Assembly: GCA_964537135.1 (NCBI GenBank)
Contig: CAZHZC010000011.1
Span: 59,848 to 123,847 of the forward strand
DNA length: 64,000 bases
Direction: 5' to 3'
From: an uncultured Rikenella sp.
GTDB taxonomy: Bacteria > Bacteroidota > Bacteroidia > Bacteroidales > VadinHA17
Shown here: positions 4,617 to 57,209 of the stretch, in pieces
Layout: each line of letters starts with the position of its first letter
Numbering within the stretch: position 1 is the stretch's first letter
Program-made: the position numbers and the translations under genes
Notes under the pieces: generated by a model
The model's input: the letters and a program-made list of their open reading frames with translations, nothing else
The model's database searches: none
Told to the model about the DNA's origin: nothing

Positions 4617-4723
4617 CCGTCAGACCGGCGCCGGGTAGCCTGACCATCAGGGCAATACTGCCTGGGTAGCGCCGGGCAGCGCCGGGCAGCCTTAGCGGCA
4701 TTACATCGTCGGAATGGTGCTGC

Positions 4724-6076
4724 TTACCGAAAGAGCAGCTTCACCAGCCCCTCTATCTTGTATACCTTTGTGATCTTTATGGCCGGCACCTCGCGCAGCT
4801 CACGGTGAAATCCTGATACCAATATCTCTGTGAACCCCATACGGGCAGCCTCCATGATACGCTGCTCTATGCGCGCCACCGGCCTTATCTCACCTGAGAG
4901 ACCCACCTCACCGGCGAGGGCGGTATGGTGATCAACCGGCACATCGAGGTTTGAGGAGAGCACCGCGGCCGCTACTGCCAGGTCAATGGCCGGATCACTA
5001 ACCTTTAGTCCGCCAGCTATGTTGAGGAAGACATCCTTTATCCCCAGCCTGAAGCCTGCCCTCTTCTCGAGCACCGCCAGGAGCATGTTGAGCCGTCGCG
5101 TATCAAAGCCGGTGGAGCTGCGCTGCGGCGTGCCGTAGACGGCGCTGCTGACCAGCGACTGTGTCTCTATCAGGAAGGGTCTCACCCCCTCTACGGTGGC
5201 AGCGATGGTCACGCCGCTGGCCGGCTCGCGGTCATGACGTATGAAGAGGTCGGAGGGATCGGTCACCTCACGCAGCCCGTCAGAGCGCATCTCCCAGATA
5301 CCTATCTCTGCCGTTGAGCCAAACCGGTTCTTTACCGGTCGCAGTATACGGAACATATAGTTGTTGTCACCCTCAAACTGCAGCACCACGTCGACGATAT
5401 GTTCAAGCACCTTGGGCCCGGCCAGTGACCCCTCCTTGGTGATGTGCCCTATCAGTATCACCGGCACCCCCGACTCCTTGGCATAGCGTAGCATCATGGC
5501 AGCGCTCTCCCGCACCTGTGTCACCGAGCCGGCTGACGACTCCAGCTGTGATGAGCTGAGGGTCTGTATCGAGTCTATGATGAGCAGCTCAGGCTTCAGG
5601 CTCTCAGCCTGGGTGAGGATGCTCTCCGGCTCTGTCTCGTTGTAGATGTAGCACCTCTCATTGCTGGTGCCGAGGCGCCCCGCCCTCAGCTTTATCTGCC
5701 CCTCGCTCTCTTCACCCGAGACGTAGAGCACCGTGCGCCCCTGCTGTGCCAGGGCTATCTGCAGTGCGAGGGTTGACTTCCCTATCCCCGGCTCACCACC
5801 CAGCAGTATCAGTGAGCCGCGTACCATGCCGCCACCGAGGATACGGTCAGCCTCACCTATCCCGGTGGTTATACGCTCATCCTCCCCCGCCTCGATGGCA
5901 TCAAGCAGCCCGGGGCGCCGACGGGAGCCACCCGACCCCTTCCTCGTGGCGGTGAGAGGGGCAATGATCTCTTCACGATAGCTGTTCCATTCACCACATG
6001 AGGGGCAGCGCCCTATCCACCTGGCTGACTCGGCGCCACAGCTCTGACACAGATATACTGACTTGCTTTTGGCCAT
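4724..6076 (-). CDS. radA: DNA repair protein RadA/Sms
   Basis: N-terminal zinc finger CQSCGAE...CPSCGEW, Walker A GEPGIGKST, KNRFG motif and a Lon-like C-terminal domain. Confidence 0.95.
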   Translation of the reverse strand: MAKSKSVYLCQSCGAESARWIGRCPSCGEWNSYREEIIAPLTATRKGSGGSRRRPGLLDAIEAGEDERITTGIGEADRILGGGMVRGSLILLGGEPGIGKSTLALQIALAQQGRTVLYVSGEESEGQIKLRAGRLGTSNERCYIYNETEPESILTQAESLKPELLIIDSIQTLSSSQLESSAGSVTQVRESAAMMLRYAKESGVPVILIGHITKEGSLAGPKVLEHIVDVVLQFEGDNNYMFRILRPVKNRFGSTAEIGIWEMRSDGLREVTDPSDLFIRHDREPASGVTIAATVEGVRPFLIETQSLVSSAVYGTPQRSSTGFDTRRLNMLLAVLEKRAGFRLGIKDVFLNIAGGLKVSDPAIDLAVAAAVLSSNLDVPVDHHTALAGEVGLSGEIRPVARIEQRIMEAARMGFTEILVSGFHRELREVPAIKITKVYKIEGLVKLLFR

Positions 6077-6099
6077 GGAAAAACTGGTTATGTGACAGA

Positions 6100-6107
6100 C
6101 AAATGTA
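6100..6107 (-). promoter_or_regulatory. Bacteroidota -7 promoter box TACATTTG upstream of radA
   Basis: Exact match to TAnnTTTG on the minus strand, 24 nt upstream of the radA ATG (6076). Confidence 0.45.
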
Positions 6108-6171
6108 AGAAAAGAATTGCTGGCAGAGAGCCGGCGGCAGACTCTTCACGCCCCGTCCGGCGTCAGACCCT

Positions 6172-7209
6172 TCAACCCCTTTTCTCCGTGGCCACTGATG
6201 AGAGCACCTTCCCTCCCCTTCTTCCGAAGAGGGCGAAGAGAGAGATGGCTCCTGCAACGGCAATCATGATCATCTGTGACTCATGCTCCAGGGTGGCATA
6301 GGCCAGTCCCTCCTCAAGGGGTATGGCATAGGCTACCAGCATGCCACGTGAGACGATCCAGTGGTAGGCGCCGAGGCCGCTCTGCACGGGGGCTGCCATG
6401 CCAAAGCTCCCTATGATAAGGATAAATATGGTGGGACCGATGCCCAGGTGTGAGGTGGAGCTGAGGCAGAGAAGCGGGAAGTAGGCCATAAAGAAGTAGG
6501 AGACCCAGAGGAGCAGTGTGAGCAGCAGGAACTCACCCCGCCGCCGAAGCTTCACAATGGTCTTGAGGCCCGAGTAGAGGCCGCTGGAGAAGGTGTATAT
6601 CTTTTTGAAGAAGGGGTTGACCGAGAGCCTCCGACGCAGCAGAAAGAACATGATGACCGCTGTCACTGCCAGCAATATCACGATCACCGTAAAGAAGGTG
6701 GCTGACCCGAATGAGGAGGTGAGCCTGCGCTCGGCAGGGAGAAATATGTTTTCCGAGAGGAAGCTGCCGGTGGCAGTACCTCCGGCAATAAGTGTCACCC
6801 CAAGTATCAGCAGCACGGTAAGGATATCTATGGTACGCTCAATGAGCATGGTTCCGACCAGCCTGTCGAAGGGAATATCCTCTTTCTTGCTCAGTGCCGC
6901 GCACTTGAATACCTCACCCAGCCTGGGGAAGATGATGTTGGCAAGGTAGCCGGCTGCTACGGTATGGTAGGTGTTTACCAGTGAGGGTCTGTAGCCCAGT
7001 GGACCTATGAGCAGTATCCAGCGGCGTGCCCTGATGACAAAGCTGAGCAGTGAGAAGATTATGGCTGGTATGAGCCACACGTAGCGGGCATTGCGTATGA
7101 TGCCCCACAGGTCGGAGAAGTTGATACCCCTGAATGAGAACCAGAGGAACAGGATCGCCAGGGCCAGGAAAAGTATCGCCTTCGCCGTTTGCTTGAGACC
7201 CTCTTTCAA
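6172..7209 (-). CDS. lysylphosphatidylglycerol-synthase-like transmembrane (UPF0104 / flippase-like) protein
   Basis: 345 aa polytopic membrane protein with the FRGINF...RARRW pattern typical of the UPF0104 family. Sits 3 nt from panD, as in other Bacteroidota. Confidence 0.6.
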   Translation of the reverse strand: MKEGLKQTAKAILFLALAILFLWFSFRGINFSDLWGIIRNARYVWLIPAIIFSLLSFVIRARRWILLIGPLGYRPSLVNTYHTVAAGYLANIIFPRLGEVFKCAALSKKEDIPFDRLVGTMLIERTIDILTVLLILGVTLIAGGTATGSFLSENIFLPAERRLTSSFGSATFFTVIVILLAVTAVIMFFLLRRRLSVNPFFKKIYTFSSGLYSGLKTIVKLRRRGEFLLLTLLLWVSYFFMAYFPLLCLSSTSHLGIGPTIFILIIGSFGMAAPVQSGLGAYHWIVSRGMLVAYAIPLEEGLAYATLEHESQMIMIAVAGAISLFALFGRRGGKVLSSVATEKRG

Positions 7210-7212
7210 ACC

Positions 7213-7563
7213 TCAGATTATTTTGTTGGTGGCAGTGTCGGGAAAGATTATCCGTGGAACGAATGAGCGGGCCTCCTCAGGGGTGAGACTGGCATATGAC
7301 ATGATAATTACCACGTCGCCAACGGCCACCCTCCTGGCTGCCGGACCGTTGAGGCATATCTCGCCCGAGCCCCTGCGGCCCCTGATCACATAGGTGACCA
7401 TCCTCTCGCCGTTGGTACGGTCAAGAACATGTACCTTCTCATACTCAATGAGCCCGGCAGCATCCATCAGATCTTCGTCAATGGTGACGCTGCCCACGTA
7501 GTTCAGGTCTGCACCGGTGATGGTGACATTGTGTATTTTTGATTTGAGAACCTCTATTGTCAT
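7213..7563 (-). CDS. panD: aspartate 1-decarboxylase
   Basis: [29 protein letters not shown] carries the pyruvoyl-forming G-S cleavage site. Length is 116 aa. Confidence 0.95.
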
Positions 7564-7594
7564 TTGGCAGAAACAAGATTGTTTTTTGCAGGTG

Positions 7595-7602
7595 CAAAGA
7601 TA
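7595..7602 (-). promoter_or_regulatory. -7 promoter box TATCTTTG upstream of panD
   Basis: Exact TAnnTTTG on the minus strand in the panC-panD gap, 32 nt upstream of the panD ATG. Confidence 0.45.
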
Positions 7603-7617
7603 CAGTAATCATTCTAT

Positions 7618-8475
7618 TCACCGTAATGTGATCCCGATATTGTCAATCAGCCTCACCTCACCCACCCAGAGGGCTATACAGCCGAAATAGCTGGCGCCGG
7701 GCTTCATCTCAAACTGCGAGGTGACCGGGGTGAGCGACTCACCATCAACAATCTCAAAATATTCGATGGTGAAACCGGGAATCATGTTTATACGGTCAAA
7801 GACAAAATCCCTGATCTCAGATATCTGATAGTCATTGATCATGGCTGAGGCGGCTATCAGGGTGCGGTACACCTCACCGGCCAGGGCGCGGTGCTGTGTC
7901 AGCAGCCTGCGGTTGCGGCTGCTCATGGCCAGTCCGTCATGCTCCCTGATGATGGGGCATGCAACAATCCTGACATCAGGGTAGTCACGACGAGCAAGCT
8001 CCCTGATGATGGTGAGCTGCTGCAGATCCTTCTCACCGAAGTAGGCAGATGAGGGCCTGATAATGTCGAAGAGACGTGACACAACCTGGACCACACCGTT
8101 GAAGTGGCCGGGACGGTGCAGACCCTCCATCACCTTGTCAAGGGTGCCCAAGTCAAACTGACGGGTGTCAGGCTCAGGGTAGATCTCCTCAGGGGAAGGT
8201 ACAAACACAAAGTCGCTGGTACGAAGCAGCGGCGAGAGCAGCTCAAGATCAGCATCAAGGGTGCGGGGGTACCTGGTAAGATCATCCGGATCATTGAACT
8301 GGGTCGGGTTGACAAAGATACTGACACCCACCATACGGTTCTCCTTCACAGCCTGACGTACCAGCGAGAGATGACCCTCATGCAGGGCACCCATGGTAGG
8401 CACAAAACCCGGATTACGCAGTACGGTAACCCTGTAATGATCCCTCACCTCCTTGACTGTTGTAACTACATTCAT
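7618..8475 (-). CDS. panC: pantoate--beta-alanine ligase
   Basis: PTMGALHEGHLSLV (HxGH nucleotidyltransferase motif). 285 aa and adjacent to panD. Confidence 0.95.
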   Translation of the reverse strand: MNVVTTVKEVRDHYRVTVLRNPGFVPTMGALHEGHLSLVRQAVKENRMVGVSIFVNPTQFNDPDDLTRYPRTLDADLELLSPLLRTSDFVFVPSPEEIYPEPDTRQFDLGTLDKVMEGLHRPGHFNGVVQVVSRLFDIIRPSSAYFGEKDLQQLTIIRELARRDYPDVRIVACPIIREHDGLAMSSRNRRLLTQHRALAGEVYRTLIAASAMINDYQISEIRDFVFDRINMIPGFTIEYFEIVDGESLTPVTSQFEMKPGASYFGCIALWVGEVRLIDNIGITLR

Positions 8476-8718
8476 TCTTCTGTTGATCTCATTCTTCTGC
8501 TGATCTCATTCTTCTGCTGATCTCATCCTTCCTCTGATCTCTATATACTGTGATCCGTTCCTTTTATGGCCTGTTCCTTTTATGGCCTGTTCCTTCTGTG
8601 ATCTGTTCCTTTTATGGTTTGTTCCTTTTATGGCCTGTTCCTTCTTTGATCTGTTCCTACTGTAGCCTGTTCCTTTTGTGACCCCTTCCTTCTGTTGACC
8701 TCATCCTTCTGTGACCCC
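8471..8718. repeat. about 15 tandem CT-rich units of 15-17 nt (tcattcttctgctgatc / ctgttccttttatggc types)
   Basis: Hand-parsed units U1-U15. The first four 17-nt units contain the panC start codon context. The array fills the panC / glycogen-synthase-like divergent spacer. Confidence 0.9.
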
Positions 8719-8850
8719 ATTAACGAACCCATATTCGCTACTGTCAACCACCCCTTTTCAGATGAGTAACACCACTCTCACCGGTATGGTTTAATGGTCC
8801 GGGCGCTTTTCAGCCTGTAAGCCCTTGCAAAATAAGACCATTTTTTTTAT

Positions 8851-8858
8851 TATCTTTG
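8851..8858 (+). promoter_or_regulatory. -7 promoter box TATCTTTG upstream of the glycogen-synthase-like gene
   Basis: Exact TAnnTTTG, 38 nt upstream of the ATG at 8897. Confidence 0.5.
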
Positions 8859-8896
8859 CACTTTAGTTTAATGATTTAGGTATTTTGGAGGTATTA

Positions 8897-9718
8897 ATGG
8901 AGAGCAGAAGGGTTTTGTTTGTTTCACAGGAGATCATGCCTTACCTCGGAGAGACGAAACTATCCAGGATTAGCCGTGATCTGCCACAAGGGATTCAGGA
9001 GAGAGGAAAAGAGATCAGGACGTTCATGCCGCGTTACGGACTGATCAATGAGAGGAGGAATCAGCTTCATGAGGTGATACGCCTGTCGGGGATGAATATC
9101 ATCATTGATGACAGTGACCACCCGCTCATCATTAAGGTAGCTTCAATACAGTCGGCCCGCATGCAGGTCTATTTCATCGACAATGAGGACTATTTTCACC
9201 GTAAGCACACCATGAGTGATGCCTCCGGCAAGGAGTATGAAGACAATGATGAGAGAGCCATGTTTTTTGCACGCGGGGTAATTGAGACGGTACGCAAGCT
9301 GCGCTGGAGCCCCGATATTGTCCATTGTCACGGCTGGCTCTCATCACTGGTACCGTTATATCTCAGAAGTGTCTACCATGATGATCCGCTCTTTAGCAGG
9401 TCACGGTCGGTCTATTCAGTATATAACACCGGATACAAAAAGCCACTCAACCCGGAGCTTGCTACAAAGCTGATAGCTGATGGCGTTGATGCTGATGCCG
9501 TGAAGAGTATAAATGAGAGTACCGACTACCTCAGCCTGACAACGCTGGCAGCGGAAAACTCTGATGGCATAATTTTTGGATGTGACGAGATCGACCAGAA
9601 GGTGAGAGAGAGGCTCAGCTCACTGGGCAAACCGATACTTGAACATCAGAGTGAGGAAAACTATATCGACACCTATAACGATTTTTATGACAAGCTCGTT
9701 CTCGAAACAGTCAGATAA
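8897..9718 (+). CDS. short glycogen/starch synthase-like protein (GT5 N-terminal domain only, Bacteroidota type)
   Basis: RVLFVSQEIMPY...TFMPRYG...QVYFIDNEDYFHRK matches the glycogen synthase N-domain. The track start at 8885 is a TTG. The first ATG is 8897, downstream of the -7 box. Confidence 0.8.
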   Translation: MESRRVLFVSQEIMPYLGETKLSRISRDLPQGIQERGKEIRTFMPRYGLINERRNQLHEVIRLSGMNIIIDDSDHPLIIKVASIQSARMQVYFIDNEDYFHRKHTMSDASGKEYEDNDERAMFFARGVIETVRKLRWSPDIVHCHGWLSSLVPLYLRSVYHDDPLFSRSRSVYSVYNTGYKKPLNPELATKLIADGVDADAVKSINESTDYLSLTTLAAENSDGIIFGCDEIDQKVRERLSSLGKPILEHQSEENYIDTYNDFYDKLVLETVR

Positions 9719-10994: not shown

Positions 10995-11039
10995 GAAAAG
11001 ATACGTTACCTTTTTAGTAACATCTAATTCTTTACAACC

Positions 11040-13031: not shown

Positions 13032-13059
13032 GGGGGCGGGACCGGGCTATCCCTCTCAG

Positions 13060-14115: not shown

Positions 14116-14170
14116 ATCTATCTGTTTTTTCTTGTTCTCTTCTGCGGCTGCCTCATACTCTTCGGTACCC

Positions 14171-14284
14171 CTCCTGCCCTTACTCTATTCTATGCTGGCA
14201 GGGTCCTCTTGCCGGCCTGACCGTCCCGGCATTTCTCCTGCCCTGATTCTATGCTGGCCCGGCTTCTCTCTCCGGCCTGACCGT
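14171..14284. repeat. two tandem copies of a ~50-54 nt CT-rich unit (ctcctgccct..ttctatgctggc..ccggcctgaccgt)
   Basis: Copies run 14171-14224 and 14235-14284 in the galE-stop / rfbB-start spacer. Confidence 0.75.
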
Positions 14285-14331
14285 GCTGGCTGCTCAGCAG
14301 CCTCTCATGGTCTCTTCCGGCAGCACCTCTC

Positions 14332-15357: not shown

Positions 15358-15358
15358 A

Positions 15359-34196: not shown

Positions 34197-34290
34197 TATG
34201 ATCTCAGAAGGCTGCCGGTAGCAGGTTGATATCCTTTGACAGTTATGATCTCAGAAGGCTGCCAGCAGCAGGTTGATATCCTTTGACAGT
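34197..34290. repeat. 47-bp perfect-phase tandem duplication (2 mismatches) of the 3' end of the alanine-dehydrogenase-like gene, including its stop codon
   Basis: Copy 34244-34290 holds the last 13 codons plus the TGA. Copy 34197-34243 lies immediately downstream. Confidence 0.95.
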
Positions 34291-35499: not shown

Positions 35500-35561
35500 T
35501 GATTTTAATGGCAGAGATAAAAGCAGTTAGACCATTATTAGAGTGTTGTACCCGGAAAGCG

Positions 35562-35699
35562 GGCCGGTCTTCTGTTAAAAAGGTGCAGCGGATGGCGGCC
35601 CGGTCTTCTGCCAGAAAGGTGCAGCGGGAGCCGGCGCATGGCTTCTATTGGAGAGTGCGCCTGACAGTTGGCCGGTCTTCTGTTAAAAAGGTGCAGCGG
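35562..35699. repeat. three copies of a 30-nt element (ggccggtcttctgttaaaaaggtgcagcgg) derived from the tsaE 3' end
   Basis: Copies at 35562-35591 and 35670-35699 are identical. 35597-35627 is a degenerate copy. The 35670 copy contains the last 5 codons and the TAA of tsaE. Confidence 0.9.
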
Positions 35700-44372: not shown

Positions 44373-44427
44373 GGAATAAAAGAGCCATTGTCAAGAGGCT
44401 TTTTGGAGTTATCTGATTAGCCGTATG

Positions 44428-44526
44428 CTCTTCAGGGCAGGAATGGTTGCTTTCTCTTCAGGGCAGGAATGGTTTCTTTCTCATCGGGGTATGATCAGCC
44501 GCATGGTCTTCAGGGCAAGGTCAAGG
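44428..44526. repeat. 26-nt periodic repeat (ctcttcagggcaggaatggtt) spanning the holB stop codon
   Basis: Identical 21-mers at 44428-44448 and 44454-44474. A degenerate copy sits across the stop at ~44480-44500, and a related copy (gtcttcagggcaaggtcaagg) lies at 44506-44526 inside holB. Confidence 0.75.
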
Positions 44527-45698
44527 AATATTATTTTTGTGTTTCCGTTGCTCTCCACATGTGCATATGCAAGGTTATACTCACGGTCAAGCCGGTCAAT
44601 GTTACGCTGGTTTATGAAAGGATGAAAATTTACCGAGAACTGATCTTCAGCCTTTGTCATGCTGACCAGTCCGTTATTTTTCCCGTTATAGTTAAGGATA
44701 AAGTTTTCGCGTATCATTCTCAGGGCGTAGGTGAGGAAGCTCTTCTGCCTCTCCCTGCCTGTGGCTGCCAGCTCCTCTGACCAGGCTATCAGTTCCGGCA
44801 GGTCACGCCGGTAAGCTGTTCTCATCAGCCTGATAAAGCGGTCAAGGTGTGGGGTGCCCTCATCATCTTCACTCAGCAGCTTCATAGCCCTGACCATATT
44901 ACCGCCCGCTATGGCTGCTGCCTCTGAGGCTTTCCCGCGGTCAATACCCGGTAATGTGTAAAGGTATCTCTCCATCTCACCGGGCTCTATGGCGGGGATA
45001 CGTATATGCTGACACCTTGAGGTGATGGTTGGCAGCAGTCGCTCCTCCTCTTCGGAGATCAGTATAAAGAGGGTCTTTGCCGGTGGCTCTTCAATTATCT
45101 TCAGCAGCTTGTTGGCCGTCTCATTGTTCATCTTCTCAGGCAGCCATATGATCATTATCTTGAAGTCAGACTCAAACGACTTGAGGCTCAGCTTACGTAT
45201 GATCTCGGCAGCTTCAGCCACCGGTATGAGGGGCTGCTCATTGACCACCCCCATCGCCTCGTTCCAGGTGTCCAGTGAGAACCATGGTGAGCGTAAGACC
45301 ATCTCACGCCACTCAGGCAGGTAGGTGTCACTGACAGCTACCCCCTTCGCTCTCCTGTCACCCTCACGTACCGTGCCACTGCGTGCCTCGTCTGCCGCCT
45401 CACCCTTTTTGGTGCCCCGCTGCCCTGAGTCGCTCTTCTTCCGTATCACCGGAAAGACAAAGTGAAGATCGGGGTGTATCAGCTTCTCATACTTGACACA
45501 TGAGGCGCATCGGCCGCAGGCATCGTCACTGGTGCGGCTCTCACAGCTGATATAGCGTGCAAAGGCCATCGCCAGTGCAAACTTACCGCTACCCTCGGGG
45601 CCATAAAACAGCAGTGCATGACTGACCCGGTTACCTGCCACTGAGCTGCGTAGCCGGTCAATCACTGCACCCTGTCCCGGTATGTCTGAAAAGTTCAT
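44481..45698 (-). CDS. holB: DNA polymerase III subunit delta'
   Basis: Walker A GPEGSGKF, zinc module CGRCASC, sensor motif TSRCQ. 405 aa. Confidence 0.85.
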   Translation of the reverse strand: MNFSDIPGQGAVIDRLRSSVAGNRVSHALLFYGPEGSGKFALAMAFARYISCESRTSDDACGRCASCVKYEKLIHPDLHFVFPVIRKKSDSGQRGTKKGEAADEARSGTVREGDRRAKGVAVSDTYLPEWREMVLRSPWFSLDTWNEAMGVVNEQPLIPVAEAAEIIRKLSLKSFESDFKIMIIWLPEKMNNETANKLLKIIEEPPAKTLFILISEEEERLLPTITSRCQHIRIPAIEPGEMERYLYTLPGIDRGKASEAAAIAGGNMVRAMKLLSEDDEGTPHLDRFIRLMRTAYRRDLPELIAWSEELAATGRERQKSFLTYALRMIRENFILNYNGKNNGLVSMTKAEDQFSVNFHPFINQRNIDRLDREYNLAYAHVESNGNTKIIFLDLALKTMRLIIPR

Positions 45699-46333: not shown

Positions 46334-46371
46334 TGGTCGTTTATTAATCGGAAATTAAACAAATCAGCATA

Positions 46372-47637: not shown

Positions 47638-48167
47638 TGAGACAGACTGTACTGTTATTGATATTTATTATACTTATCCCTGCCGGCTGCAGTAAGGATG
47701 ACCGCAGGGTGTCAGGCACCATAACCCTGACCAGTGAGCTCTATGAACGCGATGACTACTACTATGCGCTGGGGCTCTCCTTTGAGGAGGGGAAGGCGGT
47801 GCCCACCCTCCCTGACCAGAACAGGGCTGACATAACCGTAGGGGCCGGACCGGTGGGGGGTGGTGAGGTGGTGGCCTACCTGGGTGCCAACACCTTCAAG
47901 CCGCCATTTGCCCTGGCAGGCAGCTATGATAATGCCGGCGAGGCAGCCACAGCCTTCAAGGAGCTGAAGAGCGTAGGCAGCTACAGCTGGCTCGACCTGG
48001 CAGCCCCGCTGGCCGCCAACCAGGTGTGGGTGATGAAGAGACGTGACGGCAGCTATGCCAAGCTGAGGATAATAGCTGTCACCCTCGATACCAGCGGCGG
48101 CGAACACTATGCGTCGTGTGAGCTGCAGTGGGTGTGGCAGCCCGACGGCTCACCTACCTTCCCGTAG
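47634..48167 (+). CDS. hypothetical lipoprotein
   Basis: Lipobox LIPAGCSKDD. The GTG/ATG start overlaps the pgk stop (GTGATGA). No family recognised. Confidence 0.5.
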   Translation: MMRQTVLLLIFIILIPAGCSKDDRRVSGTITLTSELYERDDYYYALGLSFEEGKAVPTLPDQNRADITVGAGPVGGGEVVAYLGANTFKPPFALAGSYDNAGEAATAFKELKSVGSYSWLDLAAPLAANQVWVMKRRDGSYAKLRIIAVTLDTSGGEHYASCELQWVWQPDGSPTFP

Positions 48168-48184
48168 AGCAGAGGTGAGTCACC

Positions 48185-48314
48185 GTGTCTGTGCGAGCTG
48201 CTGAGTGTGGCTGAGTCGCAGTGTCTGTGAGAGCTGCTTAGTGTGAGAGGGTTGTCGTGTCTGGGAGAGCTGCAAAGTATGAGCGGGACGCAGAATGTTA
48301 GTGAGTCGGACGGG
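48185..48314. repeat. 36-nt tandem repeat x3.6 (gtgtctgtg.gagctgct.agtgtg...)
   Basis: Units 48185-48220, 48221-48256, 48257-48292 and a partial 48293-48314. The array lies between the lipoprotein stop and the LuxE-like gene start. Confidence 0.85.
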
Positions 48315-48353
48315 TATCCGGGAGGGATATTGCATATATAAGTTTCTGATATT

Positions 48354-49343: not shown

Positions 49344-49380
49344 GGGGCTCATGCCCCGCCTCTATCAGGAGTCATACCGG

Positions 49381-49530
49381 TTGCCACTCTGCCACTCTGC
49401 CGGTCATGCCACCTGCCGCTCTGCCGGTCTGCCGGCCATGCCACCTGCCGCTCTGTCGGTCATGCCACCTGCCACCTGCCGGTCTGCCGGTCATGCCACC
49501 TGCCGCTCTGCCGGTCATCCCACCAGCCAG
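49381..49530. repeat. tandem 23-32 nt units (ctgccggtcatgccacctgccgct and a variant with an extra ctgccggt)
   Basis: Five units at 49397-49420, 49421-49452, 49453-49475, 49476-49507 and 49508-49530, in a convergent spacer. The flanking cagattcatccc (49528-49539) resembles gagattcatacc (49568-49579), which contains the Stealth gene stop codon. Confidence 0.85.
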
Positions 49531-49572
49531 ATTCATCCCTTAGCCGGCAGTGCAAAAGACCTCAGATGAGAT

Positions 49573-50586: not shown

Positions 50587-50596
50587 GATGATGGTT

Positions 50597-50604
50597 CAAA
50601 CTTA
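50597..50604 (-). promoter_or_regulatory. -7 promoter box TAAGTTTG upstream of the Stealth gene
   Basis: Exact TAnnTTTG on the minus strand only 11 nt upstream of the ATG at 50586. This would imply a nearly leaderless mRNA. Confidence 0.3.
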
Positions 50605-50725
50605 CGTAAAATGATTGTATCACCGGCGGGTAGGATTAACGCTGCAGTGACCTTTTGCCCAAATTGAAGGTACTAATTGCTTTATTGTTTTATTTTTTCT
50701 CACTTTTGTGTGAAATTATGATGAG

Positions 50726-51574
50726 ATGGCTGCGGAGGACAAGAGAAGGATAGCGGTGATCTCCATGGCAAGGAATGACCAGCTCTTCATCGCCAGGTGG
50801 ATCAGCTACTACGGCAGTCAGCTGGGTCATGAGAACCTCTTCCTGATACTCGACGGCCATGACCAGCCACTCCCCGGCTCCCACCCGCCCGTCAATGTAC
50901 TGAGGGTGCCTGCCGGGAGGTATGGCAGGGCTGTGGGCGACAGGAATCGTGCAGCCATCGTCACCTCACTGGCAAGGGCCCTCTTCCGCAGGTATGATAT
51001 TGTCATAGCACATGATATCGATGAGATCCTGGTGGCTGACCCGGCCGTTTCACCCGGACTGGCCCACTATCTGCAGGATCGTGGCGGTCACGCGTCGCTC
51101 TCAGCCCTCGGCCTTGATGTGGGGCAACATCTCGACAATGAGCAGCCTGTCGATATATCGAGGCCCCTCCTTCAGCAACGCAGCTATGCACATGTCTCTG
51201 CCCGGTATACCAAGGCGGTGGTAGCTCTCAGGCCCGTGACATGGGGCTCAGGCTTTCACCGGGTGCGCAACCGCAACTTCCGTATTGACCCCAACCTCTA
51301 CCTCTTCCACTTTGGCATGGCTGACTATGCCACCTCACAGGCGAAGGAGGCGAGCAGTGAGCTGATCGAGGCTGGCTGGAAGGGACACCTTGACCGCAGG
51401 TATGAGCTGTTGGACCTTATCAGGACGAAGGAGGCGATGGATGGCGATACCTTCTTCAGGGAGGCAAGGAGGAGGCAGACCCTCTTCCGGCCGATATATG
51501 CACCCAACAAGCCGGGCATGCTGCGCGAAAAGCCGGTGATACGTATCCCGGAACGGTTCAGGGATATAGTCTGA
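50726..51574 (+). CDS. GT-A-fold glycosyltransferase-like protein (family 2-like)
   Basis: IAVISMARNDQLFIARWISYYGSQLGHENLFLILDGHDQ and an acidic motif HDIDE. 282 aa. Family not resolved. Confidence 0.5.
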   Translation: MAAEDKRRIAVISMARNDQLFIARWISYYGSQLGHENLFLILDGHDQPLPGSHPPVNVLRVPAGRYGRAVGDRNRAAIVTSLARALFRRYDIVIAHDIDEILVADPAVSPGLAHYLQDRGGHASLSALGLDVGQHLDNEQPVDISRPLLQQRSYAHVSARYTKAVVALRPVTWGSGFHRVRNRNFRIDPNLYLFHFGMADYATSQAKEASSELIEAGWKGHLDRRYELLDLIRTKEAMDGDTFFREARRRQTLFRPIYAPNKPGMLREKPVIRIPERFRDIV

Positions 51575-51661
51575 ATAGAACATAAGGGATATAGTATGTA
51601 TAGAACATCAGAGAAATAGCCTGAATAGAGCATCAGGGGATATAGTCTGAATAGAACATAA
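51561..51661. repeat. 25-nt tandem repeat x4 (gggatatagtctgaatagaacataa) starting inside the glycosyltransferase 3' end
   Basis: Copies at 51561-51585 (contains the last 4 codons plus the TGA at 51572-51574), 51586-51610, 51611-51635 and 51636-51661. Confidence 0.9.
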
Positions 51662-51681
51662 ATCTGGAAACAGCTGACACA

Positions 51682-52476
51682 GTGAGATTGAAATATCGTT
51701 TAATGAAGGCCTACAGGGAGTTTATCTTCCGGCTGAGCGCATCTGAAAACCCACTCTTCCTCGCCTACTGCAGATATATTTACAAGCCTGAGCCACATTC
51801 CATCAGAGAGTATATTGACCGCTATTCACGTTCACGCAAAGAGGTGACATTCATCCAGGTGGGCGCCAATGACGGCTTCCTGCATGACCCGCTGCACTAC
51901 TTCATAAAGAGGGATAACTGGCGCGGAGTGCAGCTGGAGCCACAGCCTGACGTATACAGAAACTACCTGGTCAGGCTCCATGCCGCAAGGCCGGCGATTG
52001 AGGCTATCAATGCAGCCCTCGACCGGTATGACGGAACGAGAACTTTCTACAGGCTGGCCATCAGCAATGAGCGGTGGGCGAACGGACTGTCGGGTTTCCG
52101 GAGAGAGGTGCTGGAGAAGAAGATCGAAGAGGGCACCATGATGAAGCATATACGCCGGCAGGGTGTTGAGCTGCCGGAAAACAGGGATGACTATATTGTA
52201 TCTGAGGAGGTGGCTACGATAAGCCCCGGGACTCTTCTCAGCAGGTTTGAAGGAAAGACACCTGACCTGCTGGCCATAGACACCGAAGGGTATGACTATG
52301 AGATACTGAAGATAATTGACCTTGACAGGATTACGCCTGAGGTGATAATCTATGAGGAGGCACTCTTTGATGAGGAGACAGCCCGGGAGTGCCGGGAGTA
52401 CGTTGAAGCCCACGGATATAATTACCGCTCTTACGGAAGGGATGCCCTGGCGGTGAAGAGATCGATGGTCTGCTGA
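51682..52476 (+). CDS. FkbM-family methyltransferase
   Basis: VTFIQVGANDG...LLAIDTEGYDYEILK motifs. The track start is a GTG at 51682, with an alternative ATG at 51703. Confidence 0.8.
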   Translation: MRLKYRLMKAYREFIFRLSASENPLFLAYCRYIYKPEPHSIREYIDRYSRSRKEVTFIQVGANDGFLHDPLHYFIKRDNWRGVQLEPQPDVYRNYLVRLHAARPAIEAINAALDRYDGTRTFYRLAISNERWANGLSGFRREVLEKKIEEGTMMKHIRRQGVELPENRDDYIVSEEVATISPGTLLSRFEGKTPDLLAIDTEGYDYEILKIIDLDRITPEVIIYEEALFDEETARECREYVEAHGYNYRSYGRDALAVKRSMVC

Positions 52477-52554
52477 CCGGCCCGCAGAAGTAAATCGTCG
52501 CCTGCAGGACGGCCGGCAGAAGCAACCCACGGTGATCAGGCCGGCCCGCAGAAA
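52474..52554. repeat. three copies of ccgg(cc)cgcagaa at ~32-nt spacing, the first overlapping the FkbM stop codon
   Basis: tgaccggcccgcagaag at 52474-52490, gacggccggcagaag at 52508-52522, ccggcccgcagaa at 52541-52553. Confidence 0.7.
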
Positions 52555-52603
52555 TTTCCTCCCTGGCTTAACCTGCCGGGAGTATTGACTTGATAAACAA
52601 CAG

Positions 52604-54184
52604 ATGGAAGGCACCACAGACATAGTGCAGAGACCGCTACACCGTACCCTCTATCTTGCATCACTGGTACTGATTGTTGTCTCACTGCCGCTCTCAAGAT
52701 TCCTGCTTACCGTCGGTGAGCTGCTGCTGGTGGTAAACTGGCTGGCTGAGGGTAATCTGCGGGTCAGGTGTTCACGTCTGAGGAGTGACCGGGCCGCTCT
52801 CTTCCTCATGCTTATCTATGTGCTCAATATCATTGCTCTGCTCTGGTCTCATGACCGCCACTACGGGCTGATGAATGATCTGCTTCACAAGTTGCCTACC
52901 CTCTTCCTCCCACTGGTGGTGGCCACCACGCCGCCGCCCGACAGGAGGGAGGTGCGGCAGCTGATAATACTCTTTATCGGGTCGGTGCTGGCGGCCACCC
53001 TGGCGGGCCTCTCTCTCAGAATAGCCAATGCTAACCTCTTTTACCGTGAAGCCTCCCCCTTTATCCCGGGTATCTACCTGGGTATGATGCTGATCATTGC
53101 TGCCTCACTGCTCCTTGGCGGGGTCGTGCACCCTGCTGCCAGGGGGTGGCGCCGGTGGAGCGCCATCATCCTCTCGGCCTGGTTTATCTTCTTCATCTTC
53201 TACCTGAGAGCTCTCTCGGCAATAGCCTCGCTGGCGGTGGTGGTGCTGCTGCTGGTGATACGCCTGGCCGTCAGGTCACGAAGCATCACCCTGAAGATAG
53301 CTCTTCCCACCGTGACGGCCGCTATCCTGCTCACTCTCGCACTGATGGTGACAGGCCTCTGGAGCGAGGTAAACACCGTGAATGAGGTCCGTTTCGGCTC
53401 ATTACCACAGCAGACCCTGCGGGGGAATGAGTACTACCATGATACACTCAGCATTCTTACCGAGAATGGTAACTATGTCTACCTCTGCATAGCTGAGGGT
53501 GAGCTGAGGGAGGCATGGAATGAGAGGAGCAGCCTCGACTACGACGGTGAGGACCTTATGGGACAGGAGCTTAAGGGTATTCTTATCAGGTACCTGGCAT
53601 CGAAGGGACTGAAGAAGGAGAGGGAGGGTGTGGCGATGCTCGATGATGATGATATCAGAGCTATTGAACGTGGCATTGCCAACTGGCGCAATGTGAGACG
53701 GCCGGGCATAGTGGTGAGGCTACATGAGGAGCTGACAGGACTCTCCTACTGGCACCGCTCATCGGGTAGGGAGACCTCATGGGGCTCACTCTCCAAACGC
53801 CTCGACCTGTGGAGGGCGGCAGTGCACGCCTTCAAAAGGTATCCCCTCACAGGCTGGGGCACCGGAGGGGTGATGAGGGCGATGGAGTACGGCAAGGAGG
53901 GTACAGGGTCATCACTGTCTGACCTGAAGATGAACCCCCACAGCCAGTACCTCTACCTGCTGCTCAGCCAGGGGGTGGCCGGCATGATTATAACGATACT
54001 GCTCTATGTGGCCTTTGTAAGACGAAAGGAGCTGCACCGGTCGCTCCTCTTCACACTGTTCATAGTGACTTTCCTTGTCAATTTTGTGGGAAACAACTCC
54101 TTCGAGTCGCAGCCGGGACAGGAGCTCTTTATAGTGGTTACGGTGGCCATGGCTTACTTCCGCTCCTCAGCCAGTGAAGAGTGA
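52604..54184 (+). CDS. O-antigen ligase / polymerase family (Wzy_C) membrane protein
   Basis: 526 aa with ~10 TM helices, a large loop, and NPHSQYLYLLLSQGVAG typical of the O-antigen ligase domain. Confidence 0.7.
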   Translation: MEGTTDIVQRPLHRTLYLASLVLIVVSLPLSRFLLTVGELLLVVNWLAEGNLRVRCSRLRSDRAALFLMLIYVLNIIALLWSHDRHYGLMNDLLHKLPTLFLPLVVATTPPPDRREVRQLIILFIGSVLAATLAGLSLRIANANLFYREASPFIPGIYLGMMLIIAASLLLGGVVHPAARGWRRWSAIILSAWFIFFIFYLRALSAIASLAVVVLLLVIRLAVRSRSITLKIALPTVTAAILLTLALMVTGLWSEVNTVNEVRFGSLPQQTLRGNEYYHDTLSILTENGNYVYLCIAEGELREAWNERSSLDYDGEDLMGQELKGILIRYLASKGLKKEREGVAMLDDDDIRAIERGIANWRNVRRPGIVVRLHEELTGLSYWHRSSGRETSWGSLSKRLDLWRAAVHAFKRYPLTGWGTGGVMRAMEYGKEGTGSSLSDLKMNPHSQYLYLLLSQGVAGMIITILLYVAFVRRKELHRSLLFTLFIVTFLVNFVGNNSFESQPGQELFIVVTVAMAYFRSSASEE

Positions 54185-54296
54185 CTCCCAGGCTGACCAC
54201 TTGCCGTTGCCTACTGATACTACCCCTTACCTCACGCTATCCTCCCTGACGCTGCCCCCCCCCTCACACCTGACGGTGGTGATGACCTATAGTAAG

Positions 54297-54324
54297 GGCC
54301 GGGGTGCTCCCAGCATCCCCGGCC
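54297..54324. other. 8-bp GC hairpin (ggccgggg-N12-ccccggcc) in a convergent spacer
   Basis: Read directly. No U-tract on either strand. Confidence 0.5.
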
Positions 54325-54362
54325 CCTGAACCATTATGTGAGCAGAAAATTACTGCACTGCT

Positions 54363-54438
54363 CCGGCAGTTGCCACGACCGGCAGCTCTGTCACGACCGG
54401 CAGCTCTGTCACGACCGGCAGCTGTCACGACCGATAGC
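54363..54438. repeat. 16-18 nt tandem repeat x4 (ccggcagctctgtcacga)
   Basis: Units 54363-54378, 54379-54396, 54397-54414 and 54415-54430, plus a partial unit. Confidence 0.9.
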
Positions 54439-54457
54439 GGCTCCTTCTCTGCTCTTT

Positions 54458-54497
54458 TCTACTCTACTCTACTCTACTCTGTTCTGTTCTACTCTAA
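54458..54497. repeat. pentanucleotide repeat (tctac/tctgt) x8, ending on the pepC stop codon
   Basis: Units begin at 54458. The last unit, tctaa, contains the cta (TAG stop) at 54494-54496. Confidence 0.9.
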
Positions 54498-55693
54498 ATT
54501 CCCAGCTTGGACCTGATATCTGCCGGTACTGCATCTTTGTGTACCATGAAGAACAGTGTCTTGGCCTTTACATAGCTCTCTGACATGTTGAGGTATCCGC
54601 CATGCGGATTTCTGTCTGTACCCCATGAGTTCTTGGTTATGTAGTAGTTGGTACCGTTCTGGTCTTTCACTATACCCGTCAGGTGCATCAGGTGGTCATC
54701 AGTGGTGGTGAAGGTCTGGAAGCCCTCCTGGCGAAGCTCCTGTGTCACATTCAGCTCCTTGCCCGGCTTGTCAAACAGTCCGGGTATCGGTGCAGGCATG
54801 CCCTGCATCCCCTCAAAGCGTGCCCTGTCAGTTGTGGCCGCTGCGGGGTAGGTGGTGAGGTCAGGATTGATAGCCACACCGTTGGCATGAGAGAAGCCCC
54901 TCTCACTCACATCACCGTCCCATGCAACTGTGTATCCGGTGTTGAGCGCATTGTCTATGATACGCATGAACTCATCCAGCGGTACGTTATGGAACCGGCT
55001 GTACTCCCAGTTGTCAGGCACCTCAATCAGCCCCTCGGTGTAGAAGGGGAAGTGGGTGAAGGAGGTGATGGCAACATAGTCATCCATGTTGAGACCGAGG
55101 CTCGCAGCAAATGACTTGGGGGTATAGGTCTGACCTTTGTAGGTAAAGCTCTGTGGTACAGGACCAAGATAGATATCAAGAAGGGCATCAAGCACCTCTT
55201 CGGTCTCCTTGCTCCAGCGCCTCATCTTGACAGGTACGGTGGCAATGGCATCTATGTATGACTGCAGCTCACGGTGGTTATGTCCGGGTGAGTCGTAGTT
55301 GATACCTGAGTAGACCTCCTGAGGAACCATTCCTGACTCCCTGAAGACCCTCAGCCATGAGGGGGAGAGGCCTCCTTCACCAAGGTTACCCTTACCCTGA
55401 CGCAGGAAATTGTCAAAGAACCTGTTCTTGTATACGTTCCTTACGATAAACATCTCAGCAAGATCATACTCACCCTTACCCAGCCTGAGCAGCTCCGACT
55501 CAAAGAAAGAGGTGGTGGCAAAACACCAGCAGGTGCCGGTTGATGCCTGATTCTTCACCGGCGTGGCCGGAATTGATACTACAGTGGTAAATTTAAATCC
55601 TTCTGGCTCATCAGCAGCCTTCTTTGCCTTTTGGGCATTTAGAGGCATTGCAACAATGACCATCGCAGCCAGAAACAACATTGTCTTCTTCAT
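54494..55693 (-). CDS. pepC: C1-family cysteine peptidase (aminopeptidase C / bleomycin hydrolase-like) with a signal peptide
   Basis: NQASTGTCWCFA active-site Cys motif and an N-terminal signal MKKTMLFLAAMVIVAMPLNAQ. 399 aa. Confidence 0.85.
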   Translation of the reverse strand: MKKTMLFLAAMVIVAMPLNAQKAKKAADEPEGFKFTTVVSIPATPVKNQASTGTCWCFATTSFFESELLRLGKGEYDLAEMFIVRNVYKNRFFDNFLRQGKGNLGEGGLSPSWLRVFRESGMVPQEVYSGINYDSPGHNHRELQSYIDAIATVPVKMRRWSKETEEVLDALLDIYLGPVPQSFTYKGQTYTPKSFAASLGLNMDDYVAITSFTHFPFYTEGLIEVPDNWEYSRFHNVPLDEFMRIIDNALNTGYTVAWDGDVSERGFSHANGVAINPDLTTYPAAATTDRARFEGMQGMPAPIPGLFDKPGKELNVTQELRQEGFQTFTTTDDHLMHLTGIVKDQNGTNYYITKNSWGTDRNPHGGYLNMSESYVKAKTLFFMVHKDAVPADIRSKLGI

Positions 55694-55728
55694 AAGCTCT
55701 ATATTTTAAAGTGTTAATTCAGCAGAAC

Positions 55729-55736
55729 CAAAATTA
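55729..55736 (-). promoter_or_regulatory. -7 promoter box TAATTTTG upstream of pepC
   Basis: Exact TAnnTTTG on the minus strand, 36 nt upstream of the ATG at 55693. Confidence 0.45.
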
Positions 55737-55791
55737 TTTAAATATTTTGAATATGGAAATGTTTTTTAGCAGCGACAACTGATGGTGGTGG

Positions 55792-55973
55792 CAGGAACAG
55801 AAGCAGAAGGGGTGACAGGAACAGAAACAGAGTCAGGAACAGAAGCGGAGTCAGGAACAGAAGTTGAGGCTGAGACGCAGGCGGAAACAGCGGTAGAGGC
55901 ATGAACAGAAACAGAGGCAGAGACGTAGGCAGAAACAGAGGCAGAGACGTAGGCTGAAACAGAGGCAGAGGGG
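55792..55973. repeat. purine-rich compound tandem repeats (18-nt tcaggaacagaagnngag x2; 24-nt cagaaacagaggcagagacgtagg x2.8)
   Basis: 18-mers at 55833-55850 and 55851-55868. Identical 24-mers at 55906-55929 and 55930-55953, plus a partial unit abutting the yraN stop (55977). Confidence 0.85.
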
Positions 55974-55976
55974 CAC

Positions 55977-56339
55977 TCATAAGGTAGGATACCACGCACC
56001 CTCAATATGCTCTATCTCATAGTCGGCTCCGTCACATATAACGGTGATGATATCGAATCTCGCCTCCTTATCAATCCGGAAGGCACGCAGGTAGCTGGAG
56101 GCGGTATTGGTTATTGTGCGCTGCTTGGGTACGTTAACGGCCTCAGCGGGATGTACCGTATAGTCGGCTGAGCGTGTCTTGACCTCTATGAAGAGTATGT
56201 GACGGCTATCTTCTGCAATGATATCTATCTCGGTGCGTCCTGACCTCCAGTTGCGGTGCCTGACACTGTATCCCTTACGCCGGAGATAGCCGGCTGCAAG
56301 CTCCTCGCCCCTGCGGCCCACTGATCCGCTATCACTCAT
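55977..56339 (-). CDS. yraN: YraN-family (UPF0102) endonuclease-like protein
   Basis: GRRGEELAAGYLRRKGYSV...EIDIIA...FIEVKTR motifs. 120 aa. Confidence 0.85.
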   Translation of the reverse strand: MSDSGSVGRRGEELAAGYLRRKGYSVRHRNWRSGRTEIDIIAEDSRHILFIEVKTRSADYTVHPAEAVNVPKQRTITNTASSYLRAFRIDKEARFDIITVICDGADYEIEHIEGAWYPTL

Positions 56340-56340
56340 C

Positions 56341-56982
56341 CTACACCTCTATGATACGGTTTTTGATAGCATAGAGTATCAGGCTGGCAGTGTTCTTTGA
56401 CCCGGTCTTTGCCAGCAGGTTGGCACGGTGCTTATCTACTGTGCGCTTGCTGATGAACAGCTCATCAGCGATCTCATGGTTTGAGAGCCCCTCACAGATC
56501 TTAAGCAGTATCTCCTTCTCACGCTTTGAGAGGCTGGAGCTCTTCTCCTCCTGCTCACGGCCCTTCAGGCGCCTGATGACATGGTAGAGCAGCTCCTGTG
56601 AGAAGTAGTTGCCGCCACGGTGAACAGCCACAATGGCATCATGGACCTCAGTGATGTCGGAGTCTTTGAGCACAAATCCCGCCGCACCGGCATCGACCAT
56701 ACGGTAATAGTACTCCTCCTCACCATACATCGAGAGGGCAATAACCCTGGTTGACGGAAAGAGACAGGTGATTTGTGAGGTGGCCTCAACACCATCCATC
56801 CCCGGCATGCTGATATCCATCAGTACTATGTCGGCCGGACACGCCTCCAGCACCCTCAGAAGCTCATCCCCGTTGGAGGCCTCAGCCACCACGTCAAACC
56901 CGCTGTAGGCACTGAGAAGGATCTTCAGACCGTTACGGAACAGCTGGTGGTCATCAGCAATGGCTATTCTGATCTTTTCCAT
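56341..56982 (-). CDS. NarL/FixJ-type response regulator (receiver + LuxR HTH)
   Basis: Receiver VLMDISMPGMDG. HTH LSKREKEILLKICEGLSNHEIADELFISKRTVDKHRANLLAKTG. Confidence 0.9.
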   Translation of the reverse strand: MEKIRIAIADDHQLFRNGLKILLSAYSGFDVVAEASNGDELLRVLEACPADIVLMDISMPGMDGVEATSQITCLFPSTRVIALSMYGEEEYYYRMVDAGAAGFVLKDSDITEVHDAIVAVHRGGNYFSQELLYHVIRRLKGREQEEKSSSLSKREKEILLKICEGLSNHEIADELFISKRTVDKHRANLLAKTGSKNTASLILYAIKNRIIEV

Positions 56983-57040
56983 ATCTGAATGTAGTTATTA
57001 TCTTCATCGTCCTGCCGTTCAGCCTTCGCTCCGCCCCATT

Positions 57041-57209
57041 CACTTACTTACTCACTCACACACACTCTCTCTCTCTCCCTCCCTCCCTCTCTTGCTCCCC
57101 TCCCGTTCTCTCCCTCCCTCCCTCTCTTGCTCCCTCCCGTTCTCTCCCTCCCTCTCGTTCTCTCCCTCCCGTTCTCTCCCTCCCTCTCGTTCTGTCCCTC
57201 CCGTTCTCC
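57041..57209. repeat. CT-rich tandem repeats (tccctccc-gttctc / tccctccc-tctcgttctc) giving G3-tract arrays on the minus (sense) strand
   Basis: 18 C3+ tracts lie between 57077 and 57202. Canonical C3-N1-C3-N7-C3-N1-C3 blocks occur at 57097-57122, 57132-57152 and 57164-57184. Confidence 0.9.

Follow-up and report, generated by a model that had tools for sequence, protein, structure and literature searches.

Bacterial minisatellites and variable-number tandem repeats (VNTRs) are exemplified by the ETR and QUB loci of Mycobacterium tuberculosis and by the non-PU minisatellites of Escherichia coli. For whole E. coli genomes, 18 variable non-PU minisatellite loci are given, and replication slippage at short homologies is the accepted source of small variable segments there (PMC2884548). 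The interspersed repetitive units of mycobacteria (MIRUs) are, in the summary of Supply et al. (1997) given in PMC3184786, tandem units of 40-100 nt located in operon spacers, with ends overlapping the adjacent gene termini. In a survey of 5374 prokaryotic genomes with DetectRepeats, tandem repeats were enriched downstream of stop codons and upstream of start codons, and they were rare in coding sequences (CDS) (PMC12418385). Microhomology-mediated tandem duplications of tens of nucleotides arise spontaneously in Schizosaccharomyces pombe, and related events occur in E. coli (PMC8639346). Long simple sequence repeats include the cyanobacterial short tandemly repeated repetitive (STRR) sequences and the TAACTGA repeats of Beggiatoaceae, Cyanobacteria, and a few Bacteroidetes (PMC4679880). 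The present analysis concerns 14 tandem-repeat arrays in a stretch of 64,000 nt (referred to as the window) of contig CAZHZC010000011.1, which comes from an uncultured Rikenella sp. The arrays, numbered 1 to 14 by position, are probably locus-specific minisatellites that arose by local tandem duplication and were kept only where harmless.

Array density and expanded spacers

The whole 64-kb window was searched with Tandem Repeats Finder (TRF), and arrays with a score of at least 80 were designated strong. Strong calls were obtained at 8472-8718, 34197-34290, 35559-35627, 44428-44489, 48179-48291, 49382-49529, 51560-51661, 54363-54433, 54447-54496, 55804-55971, and 57040-57208. The scores of the strong arrays were 103-238, with only 51-58 for the 5-nt array at 54447-54496; TRF periods in the window were 16-55 nt, with 2-8 copies and unit identity of 74-95%. 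Two arrays too diverged for TRF (14171-14290 and 52470-52557) were shown by a separate repeat search of the window. All 14 arrays of the initial annotation are present, 11 of them as strong TRF calls and three in degenerate form. Twenty dinucleotide-preserving shuffles of the window gave no array with a score of 80 or more, the top score being 57. Also the proposal that the unit sequences are mutually unrelated is borne out, as sensitive blastn gave no cross-matches between arrays and no other copies in the window, with a 23-nt stretch common to both sub-arrays of 8471-8718 as the sole exception. According to the gene map and family scans, each array sits inside or across an intergenic spacer. 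The intergenic share of the window is 8.8%, and the arrays fill about 30% of the intergenic bases.

Related loci were collected by scanning one genome per GTDB species for HolB, which gave 80 syntenic loci, all from metagenome-assembled genomes of uncultured Bacteroidales. Loci with HolB 67-75% identical were designated the close clade; the comparison set also included a distant clade and 726 kb of metagenome contigs of other Bacteroidota. The best HolB match among the GTDB species representatives is 75% identical, and the species itself is absent there. In JGI metagenome contigs, PepC identity reaches at most 78%, and no homologue of the window's glycosyltransferase more than 73% identical was found among 5.8 billion database proteins. 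The organism is apparently very rare in public data, its exact proteins being present in three sequencing runs only.

With the same TRF settings, 1.72 strong arrays per 10 kb were counted in the window, 0.35 in the close clade, 0.09 in the distant clade, and 0.29 in the metagenome contigs of other Bacteroidota, so that the array density is indeed atypical when compared with both related and unrelated Bacteroidota. Since the gene order is conserved, 20 orthologous junctions could be compared directly. Arrays are present at seven of these 20 junctions in the window, and at 26 of 713 in the close clade (odds ratio 14, p = 1e-5); in the distant clade, they are present at seven of 322. Spacers are expanded in the window relative to the close-clade median: 283 nt vs. 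99 nt for yraN-pepC, 309 nt vs. 13.5 nt for pepC-wzy, 127 nt vs. 19 nt for wzy-fkbM, 107 nt vs. 41 nt for fkbM-glycosyltransferase, 229 nt vs. 15.5 nt for Stealth-luxE-like, 186 nt vs. 5 nt for luxE-like-176-aa gene, 177 nt vs. 104 nt for holB-ricT, and 235 nt vs. 134 nt for tsaE-ald. The spacers with arrays are short in relatives and have been expanded specifically in this lineage.

Gene ends within the arrays, geometry, and proposed origin

Six arrays contain a real stop codon, that of ald, tsaE, holB, the glycosyltransferase gene, fkbM, or pepC, and the stop lies inside the first unit. At least five of these six arrays also copy the adjoining 4-37 nt of the CDS. In array 4 (34197-34290, - strand), the last 37 nt of the ald CDS, the TGA stop, and 7 nt of the spacer form a 47-nt unit present twice (x2.0, 95% identity), with the coding copy at 34244-34290 and the spacer copy at 34197-34243. 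Identity to orthologous ald ends is 92% for the coding copy and 87% for the spacer copy; the former is conserved and the latter has drifted. Array 5 (35562-35699, - strand) has three copies of about 30 nt of the tsaE terminus (CCGCTGCACCTTTTTAACAGAAGACCGGCC, TAA included). Its unit consists of about 17 nt of the CDS, TAA, and 10 nt, and of the two downstream recurrences one is a 24/24 match 90 nt downstream; copies 1 and 2 are parted by an unrelated 42-nt stretch containing a hairpin. In array 9 (51560-51661, + strand; 25 nt x4.0, 76%), the first unit is the end of the glycosyltransferase gene (50726-51574), and 11 nt of the CDS, TGA, and 11 nt are present four times. Array 10 (52470-52557, + strand) is a degenerate array of 32 nt x3 with 67-79% identity, opened by 4 nt of the FkbM CDS and the TGA stop (52474-52476), which lies in the first unit.

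Array 6 (44409-44526, - strand) is the duplicated 3' end of holB, composed of 26 nt x2.4 (91%) and a relic of the ancestral terminus, IRLIR*, kept in the spacer at 44409-44438. HolB now ends with ...MRLIIPR*, while the protein of relatives ends with ...MRLIR*. The changed terminus together with the ancestral relic in the spacer indicates that the duplication rewrote the HolB C-terminus. In array 12 (54447-54497, - strand), 5-nt TAGAG units (CTCTA on the + strand) are repeated 10 times with 82% identity, and the first TAG is the pepC stop (54494-54496); the stop has only this TAG in common with the unit. Sub-array 2a (8471-8545; 17 nt x4.1, 92% identity, found by TRF) adjoins only the panC ATG (8475, - strand), and the shared letters are ATGA. 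According to the initial annotation, seven arrays lie at codon boundaries with the gene terminus as their first unit. This description fits ald, tsaE, holB, the glycosyltransferase gene, and fkbM; at pepC only the TAG is shared, and at panC the array merely abuts the ATG.

The recurrence of gene ends was quantified with a 24-mer centred on each stop codon, counted as recurring when at least 18 of its 24 positions matched within 200 nt downstream. Such recurrence was found in four of 51 genes of the window and in 20 of 829 genes of the close clade. In more distant genomes, it was found in none of 392 and one of 575 genes, and in shuffled gene-spacer pairs the frequency was 0.02%. The stop-spanning duplications are real and clade-specific, and the earlier remark that templating on gene ends is atypical holds, with the phenomenon confined to this clade. 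Depending on the species, arrays at the tsaE stop have periods of 35, 36, 43, or 102 nt, and the stop of the 166-aa gene upstream of holB has 45-53-nt arrays in several relatives. A tandem duplication of about 38 nt lies over the start codon of a LuxE-like gene in the nearest relative (L002:7496-7543), and start-spanning events therefore also happen in the clade.

The placement of the arrays was evaluated in a geometry test of 57 spacer arrays from the window and the close clade, in which the ancestral spacer length was estimated for each array and the unit was placed at random. Stop-spanning arrays numbered 18, with 14.4 expected, and start-spanning arrays three, with 7.3 expected. Because ancestral spacers were short and units are 25-55 nt long, uniform placement alone already predicts the 14.4 stop-spanning arrays. 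The pattern in which about half of the arrays touch a codon boundary is thus mostly geometry plus selection, and the claim that duplication is focused at gene boundaries is not supported. Of a lineage-specific mutational process acting at gene ends, as it had been put, the lineage excess of arrays stands and the focus on boundaries lacks support.

Other features of the placement are in line with selection. Only 13 arrays were found in 839 kb of CDS, compared with 57 classified spacer arrays (60 non-CDS arrays in total) in 140 kb of intergenic DNA; arrays are thus about 26-fold rarer per base in coding DNA. Convergent spacers have arrays in 21% of cases, co-directional ones in 8%, and divergent ones in 3.4%, and within co-directional spacers the array is nearer to the upstream stop in 20 cases and nearer to the downstream start in nine. 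Periods divisible by three were seen in seven of 13 arrays inside open reading frames (ORFs) and in 17 of 60 intergenic ones (p = 0.10). Alignment with relatives revealed conserved promoter-like blocks upstream of pepC, ricT, and ald which are intact beside the arrays; these blocks adjoin the downstream starts, and the arrays lie on the stop-proximal side. A GC-rich terminator-like hairpin at 54296-54326 in the wzy/pepC spacer, conserved in the relative L002, likewise remains intact with arrays adjoining it. Arrays do not take the place of promoters or terminators, although the initial annotation noted that they often lie where these would be expected. The gradient among spacer types, the depletion at starts, the intact blocks, the decay of the ald spacer copy, and the trend in reading frame are all as predicted by purifying selection on random duplications.

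Repeated local tandem duplication of segments of 5-60 nt would generate such arrays. A duplication over a stop codon would leave the reading frame and the stop unharmed, with the extra copies landing in the spacer, and with ancestral spacers of about 5-100 nt and units of 25-55 nt a large share of the tolerated events would have to take in the 3' end of a gene. Duplications within genes or across promoters and starts would be purged by selection. Arrays once seeded would duplicate again at several scales, which would give nested periods, and would then decay by point mutation; the higher load in this genome would reflect either more frequent events or weaker selection on spacer length. Nested periods are present, with 8 nt in 24, 31, and 55 nt, 6 nt in 12, 24, and 48 nt, 4 nt in 14, 18, and 32 nt, and 16 nt in 32 and 48 nt, and together with the unit identities of 74-95% they indicate a continuing process of several steps, in which duplication and decay alternated, and not a single burst. 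The route may have been replication slippage or template switching, for which microhomology-mediated tandem duplication (PMC8639346) offers an analogy, or unequal sister-strand exchange, with slippage the probable one. The arrays would also be nearly neutral.

Several observations weigh against an origin by ordinary duplication and tolerance. No microhomology flanks the youngest array (ald, 47 nt x2.0), so that a simple origin by microhomology slippage is not demonstrated. For about half of the arrays (1, 2, 3, 8, 11, 13, and 14), no template could be detected in the ends of the adjacent genes. When derivation of the remaining arrays from flanking gene ends was tried, a significant match was obtained for array 7 only, whose unit is similar to a part of the CDS of the upstream 176-aa gene located about 45 nt ahead of its stop (none of 400 null comparisons reached its score). 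Expansion has here affected junctions that are strictly 5 nt long or overlapping in dozens of relatives, at an apparent cost to translational coupling. The three sequencing runs showed no variation in copy number except for one ambiguous unit of array 14. Arrays are also clustered, with eight of 13 junctions at 44-58 kb carrying them compared with five of 38 elsewhere (p = 0.0015), and a uniform genome-wide process does not predict this. The geometry test relies on ORF calls that are crude and on ancestral spacer lengths that were estimated, and the explanation itself does not account for the roughly 5-20-fold excess of arrays in this genome.

Alternative origins

A heritable hyper-duplication state is a rather unlikely alternative. 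In it, a changed replisome, single-stranded-DNA exonuclease, or repair function would raise the rate of 5-60-nt duplications, and these would remodel spacers, uncouple operon junctions, and rewrite C-termini such as that of HolB, with a hot zone at the polysaccharide locus. If it were true, the lineage would be a natural bacterial model of minisatellite birth.

It is unlikely that mutation itself is focused at the 3' ends of genes, for example because replication forks or transcription complexes stall at termination (R-loops, hairpins) and template switching then duplicates the stops. Such focusing would agree with the scaling of array frequency with the number of 3' ends per spacer, from 21% through 8% to 3.4%, with the repeated striking of the same junctions by different units across species (the tsaE stop, and a histidine kinase stop in 11 of 15 loci), and with the slight surplus of stop-spanning arrays. 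The surplus over the geometric expectation is small, however, and selection protecting promoters predicts the gradient among spacer types equally well. The divergent panC/glgA-like spacer also has arrays, as do positions well away from stops; there is no enrichment of terminator-like hairpins, and the arrays lack a consistent structure.

Function of the arrays as selected spacer elements, serving in insulation, in uncoupling of polysaccharide genes, in stability of mRNA 3' ends, or as binding platforms, is distinctly unlikely. Their concentration in the Stealth/glycosyltransferase/FkbM/Wzy region and its neighbours would suit such a role, as would the 10- to 40-fold expansion of tight junctions in this polysaccharide region, the 30% share of the intergenic DNA, and the strong polypurine/polypyrimidine character of several arrays. 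Against it, the arrays have no common sequence, length, strand composition, or structure, and none of their sequences is conserved in orthologous spacers of relatives, save the parts copied from genes. Units have decayed to 74-80% identity, the ald spacer copy drifts faster than the coding copy, and no Rfam family was hit in the window. The suggestion of selection for repetitive spacer elements is accordingly not upheld, the units being unrelated, decaying neutrally, having no structure or composition consistently in common, and missing from the orthologous spacers of relatives.

Particular functions were also considered. As terminators or structured RNAs the arrays were rejected, with terminator counts not above chance and inconsistent folding. 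In three scans of the window, terminator-like sites were at or below shuffle expectation (8 vs. 11.4, 10 vs. 12.9, and 8 vs. 13.2), in agreement with the few classic terminators noticed earlier, and the two hits that touch arrays are weak, with 5 base pairs each (one at 51620-51637 within array 9, the other at 54436-54453, between arrays 11 and 12). Folding z-scores of the arrays range from -2.7 to +3.3 without consistent structure, and ARAGORN found no tRNA-linked feature in the window. C-rich Rho-loading sites were rejected as well: in the sense of the upstream gene, array 13 is C/T-rich but array 14 is G/A-rich, and with such a range the arrays have no common composition.

Insertion of small mobile or foreign elements with internal repeats, similar to miniature inverted-repeat transposable elements (MITEs), repetitive extragenic palindromic (REP) sequences, or MIRUs, is very improbable. 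About half of the arrays do have no recognisable local template, and against the spacers of relatives the arrays look like clean insertions. Yet there is no family consensus, and for at least five arrays copying from the neighbouring gene end is demonstrable. Neither the 64 kb nor about 2 Mb of related loci contained dispersed copies, in a search not aimed specifically at terminal inverted repeats or target-site duplications. A dispersed repeat family or MITE was rejected on the same sensitive blastn, which gave no cross-matches in the window or in the related loci.

That the arrays are assembly artefacts is effectively refuted, because six of them were reproduced in independent de Bruijn assemblies of three runs and relatives assembled by other groups and methods carry arrays of the same kind. 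The independent assemblies are Logan contigs from runs SRR8925752, SRR8925753, and SRR31012035, retrieved by exact-protein look-up, and they are 100% identical to the window over arrays 2, 4, 7, 9, 10, and 13. Identity was recorded in L164 and L165 at sub-array 2a, in L166 and L167 at array 4, in L168 at array 7, and in L001 at array 9; contig L082 matches across array 13, with one mismatch in the 2783 nt of the whole alignment, the position of which was not determined. In favour of an artefact, contigs break off inside arrays 5, 8, and 11 (L001 and L082 in the last), as is expected of short-read graphs, and L082 lacks exactly one 32-nt unit of array 14. Both units concerned are identical over 32 nt, and the difference could be a real polymorphism or a collapse in the k = 31 graph.

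Taken as a whole, the interpretation offered in the initial annotation is retained for the lineage-specific excess of arrays. It is not supported for focusing on boundaries, where 18 stop-spanning arrays stand against 14.4 expected, or for selection on the arrays, which show neither shared features nor conservation.

Remaining arrays and comparison with known systems

Array 1 (4628-4692) lies in the convergent PBP1A/radA spacer and is weak, with three 10-14-nt copies of GCGCCGGGCAGC spaced by 41 and 10 nt; TRF made only a weak call there (10 nt x2.7, 4664-4690). Sub-array 2b (8546-8718) occupies the divergent panC/glgA-like spacer and has a 16-nt motif nested in higher-order units of 32 and 48 nt with 74-85% identity. 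In the adjacent sub-array 2a, every 17-nt unit at 8472-8541 (- strand) reads ATG AGA TCA GCA GAA GAA TGA, and the final TGA overlaps the next ATG. This forms a chain of overlapping 6-codon mini-ORFs (MRSAEE*) ending at the panC ATG, which may be a coincidence. Array 3 (14171-14290) in the galE-rmlB spacer is degenerate, of about 60 nt x2 with 80-86% identity. Array 7 (48179-48314) is 36 nt x3.1 with 75% identity, at a junction of 5 nt in most relatives. Array 8 (49381-49530) has a 7-8-nt TGCCnnTC motif nested in units of 24, 31, and 55 nt, with 90% identity at period 55; its spacer is convergent and about 15 nt long in relatives. Array 11 (54363-54438; 18 nt x4.2, 91%) lies in the convergent wzy/pepC spacer.

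Array 13 (55792-55973) begins 3 nt past the yraN stop, upstream of the conserved promoter-like block of pepC, and has a 6-nt purine motif nested in units of 12, 18, 24, and 48 nt, with 78% purine on the + strand. An 80-codon ORF at 55738-55980 (- strand) runs through this array and overlaps the yraN stop, and Logan's gene caller predicted a 40-aa gene here; relatives lack the ORF, and it most likely results from the absence of stops in the repeat. Array 14 (57041-57209) in the histidine kinase-response regulator spacer has a CTCC/CTCT motif nested in units of 14, 18, and 32 nt, with 90% pyrimidine on the + strand. At this junction (56983-57220 in the window), an array located 3-43 nt past the kinase stop is present in 11 of 15 loci including the window, with different units. 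In the distant clade, all 13 loci have a gap of 13-128 nt and no array. In the arrays at 8471-8718, 54447-54497, 55792-55973, and 57041-57209, one strand is 77-90% polypurine and the other polypyrimidine; tracts of this kind could form triplex DNA and might cause replication to stall.

HolB (DNA polymerase III delta' subunit) has a charged low-complexity insertion of about 31 residues at residues ~89-121 (45336-45434, - strand), common only to the window and L002. As a cause of the arrays it was rejected: L002 has the insertion yet no strong array in 21 kb, so the insertion does not track array load. Arrays are missing from the junctions of the sugar-nucleotide and phosphate-transport operons at 15-33 kb. 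In most relatives, the glycosyltransferase and Stealth genes are about 1.1 kb apart and enclose a second Stealth-family paralogue (e.g., L005:4149-5123), and the window (50587-50725) and L002 have a single Stealth copy.

With arrays filling about 30% of its intergenic bases and seven of 20 conserved junctions expanded, the lineage could be used for studying the birth, hierarchical growth, and decay of minisatellites. It is also a cautionary case, as repeats seemingly nucleated on stop codons can come from geometry and purifying selection without any boundary-directed mechanism. Such events alter gene ends, as in the HolB C-terminus, and break translational coupling. In practice, the arrays fragment short-read assemblies, as the Logan contigs ending inside three of them illustrate.

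Among the known systems, several classes differ clearly from the window arrays. Unlike REP sequences, bacterial interspersed mosaic elements (BIMEs), and MITEs, the arrays have no dispersed copies and no consistent folding, and Rfam gave no hits. Phase-variable contingency loci are near-perfect repeats of 1-8 nt in promoters or 5' coding regions; the sole short-unit array, TAGAG x10 (82%), lies past the pepC stop, and the other units are long, imperfect, and mostly 3' of genes. In contrast to CRISPR, the units are contiguous without unique spacers, and no cas gene is among the annotated proteins of the window. Intrinsic terminators are not represented by the arrays either: two weak hits touch them, the counts are at or below shuffle, and the conserved hairpin lies beside them.

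Of 58 close-clade arrays, 27 have periods in multiples of 7 (7, 14, 21, 28, and 35 nt), and the heptamer AAATCGC is present at two different junctions in six species. Heptamer-type arrays were found at loci L003, L005, L013, L015, L019, L024, L026, L029, L036, L037, L042, L051, and L087, for example at L003:3848-3893 and L005:14027-14071. Intergenic arrays of the relatives with periods of 7, 14, 21, and 35 nt, with AAATCGC at two junctions, resemble the heptameric long simple sequence repeats and STRR sequences. In the window itself, TRF found no strong period-7 array, and the units are longer and all different.

MIRUs are similar in that unit ends overlap the stops of flanking genes, as they do at ald, tsaE, holB, the glycosyltransferase gene, fkbM, and pepC. 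MIRUs, however, form one dispersed and possibly mobile family at about 40-50 loci, whereas the window units are all unrelated, each locus having its own, locally copied unit. Like the arrays, microhomology-mediated duplications occur everywhere, are eliminated from essential coding DNA, and can be fixed in tolerant DNA. They differ in that no junction microhomology was demonstrated in the window, and they come from another organism with other replication and repair machinery.

The closest class is that of minisatellites and VNTRs, which have in common with the window arrays head-to-tail units of 10-100 nt, locus specificity, a mostly intergenic position, and an origin attributed to slippage or unequal exchange. 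The window arrays are contiguous head-to-tail repeats with units of about 10-100 nt, each specific to its locus and without a dispersed family in the window and about 2 Mb of related loci. Under the definition used for E. coli (units of at least 20 nt, at least two copies, and at least 90% identity; PMC2884548), three loci are found in the 64-kb window. The density is far higher in the window. As to variable copy number, the defining feature of VNTRs, the three runs, with no sister strain among the database sequences, gave identical arrays except for the 32-nt unit of array 14 that the k = 31 graph could have collapsed. The DetectRepeats survey describes a genome-average tendency, and the window is extreme in this respect, with 30% of its intergenic bases in arrays and explicit stop-containing units. 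The bias of tandem repeats towards positions outside coding regions is already published for 5374 genomes, and the window is an extreme member of this known class: its arrays represent ordinary minisatellite formation at unusually high density and no new kind of element.

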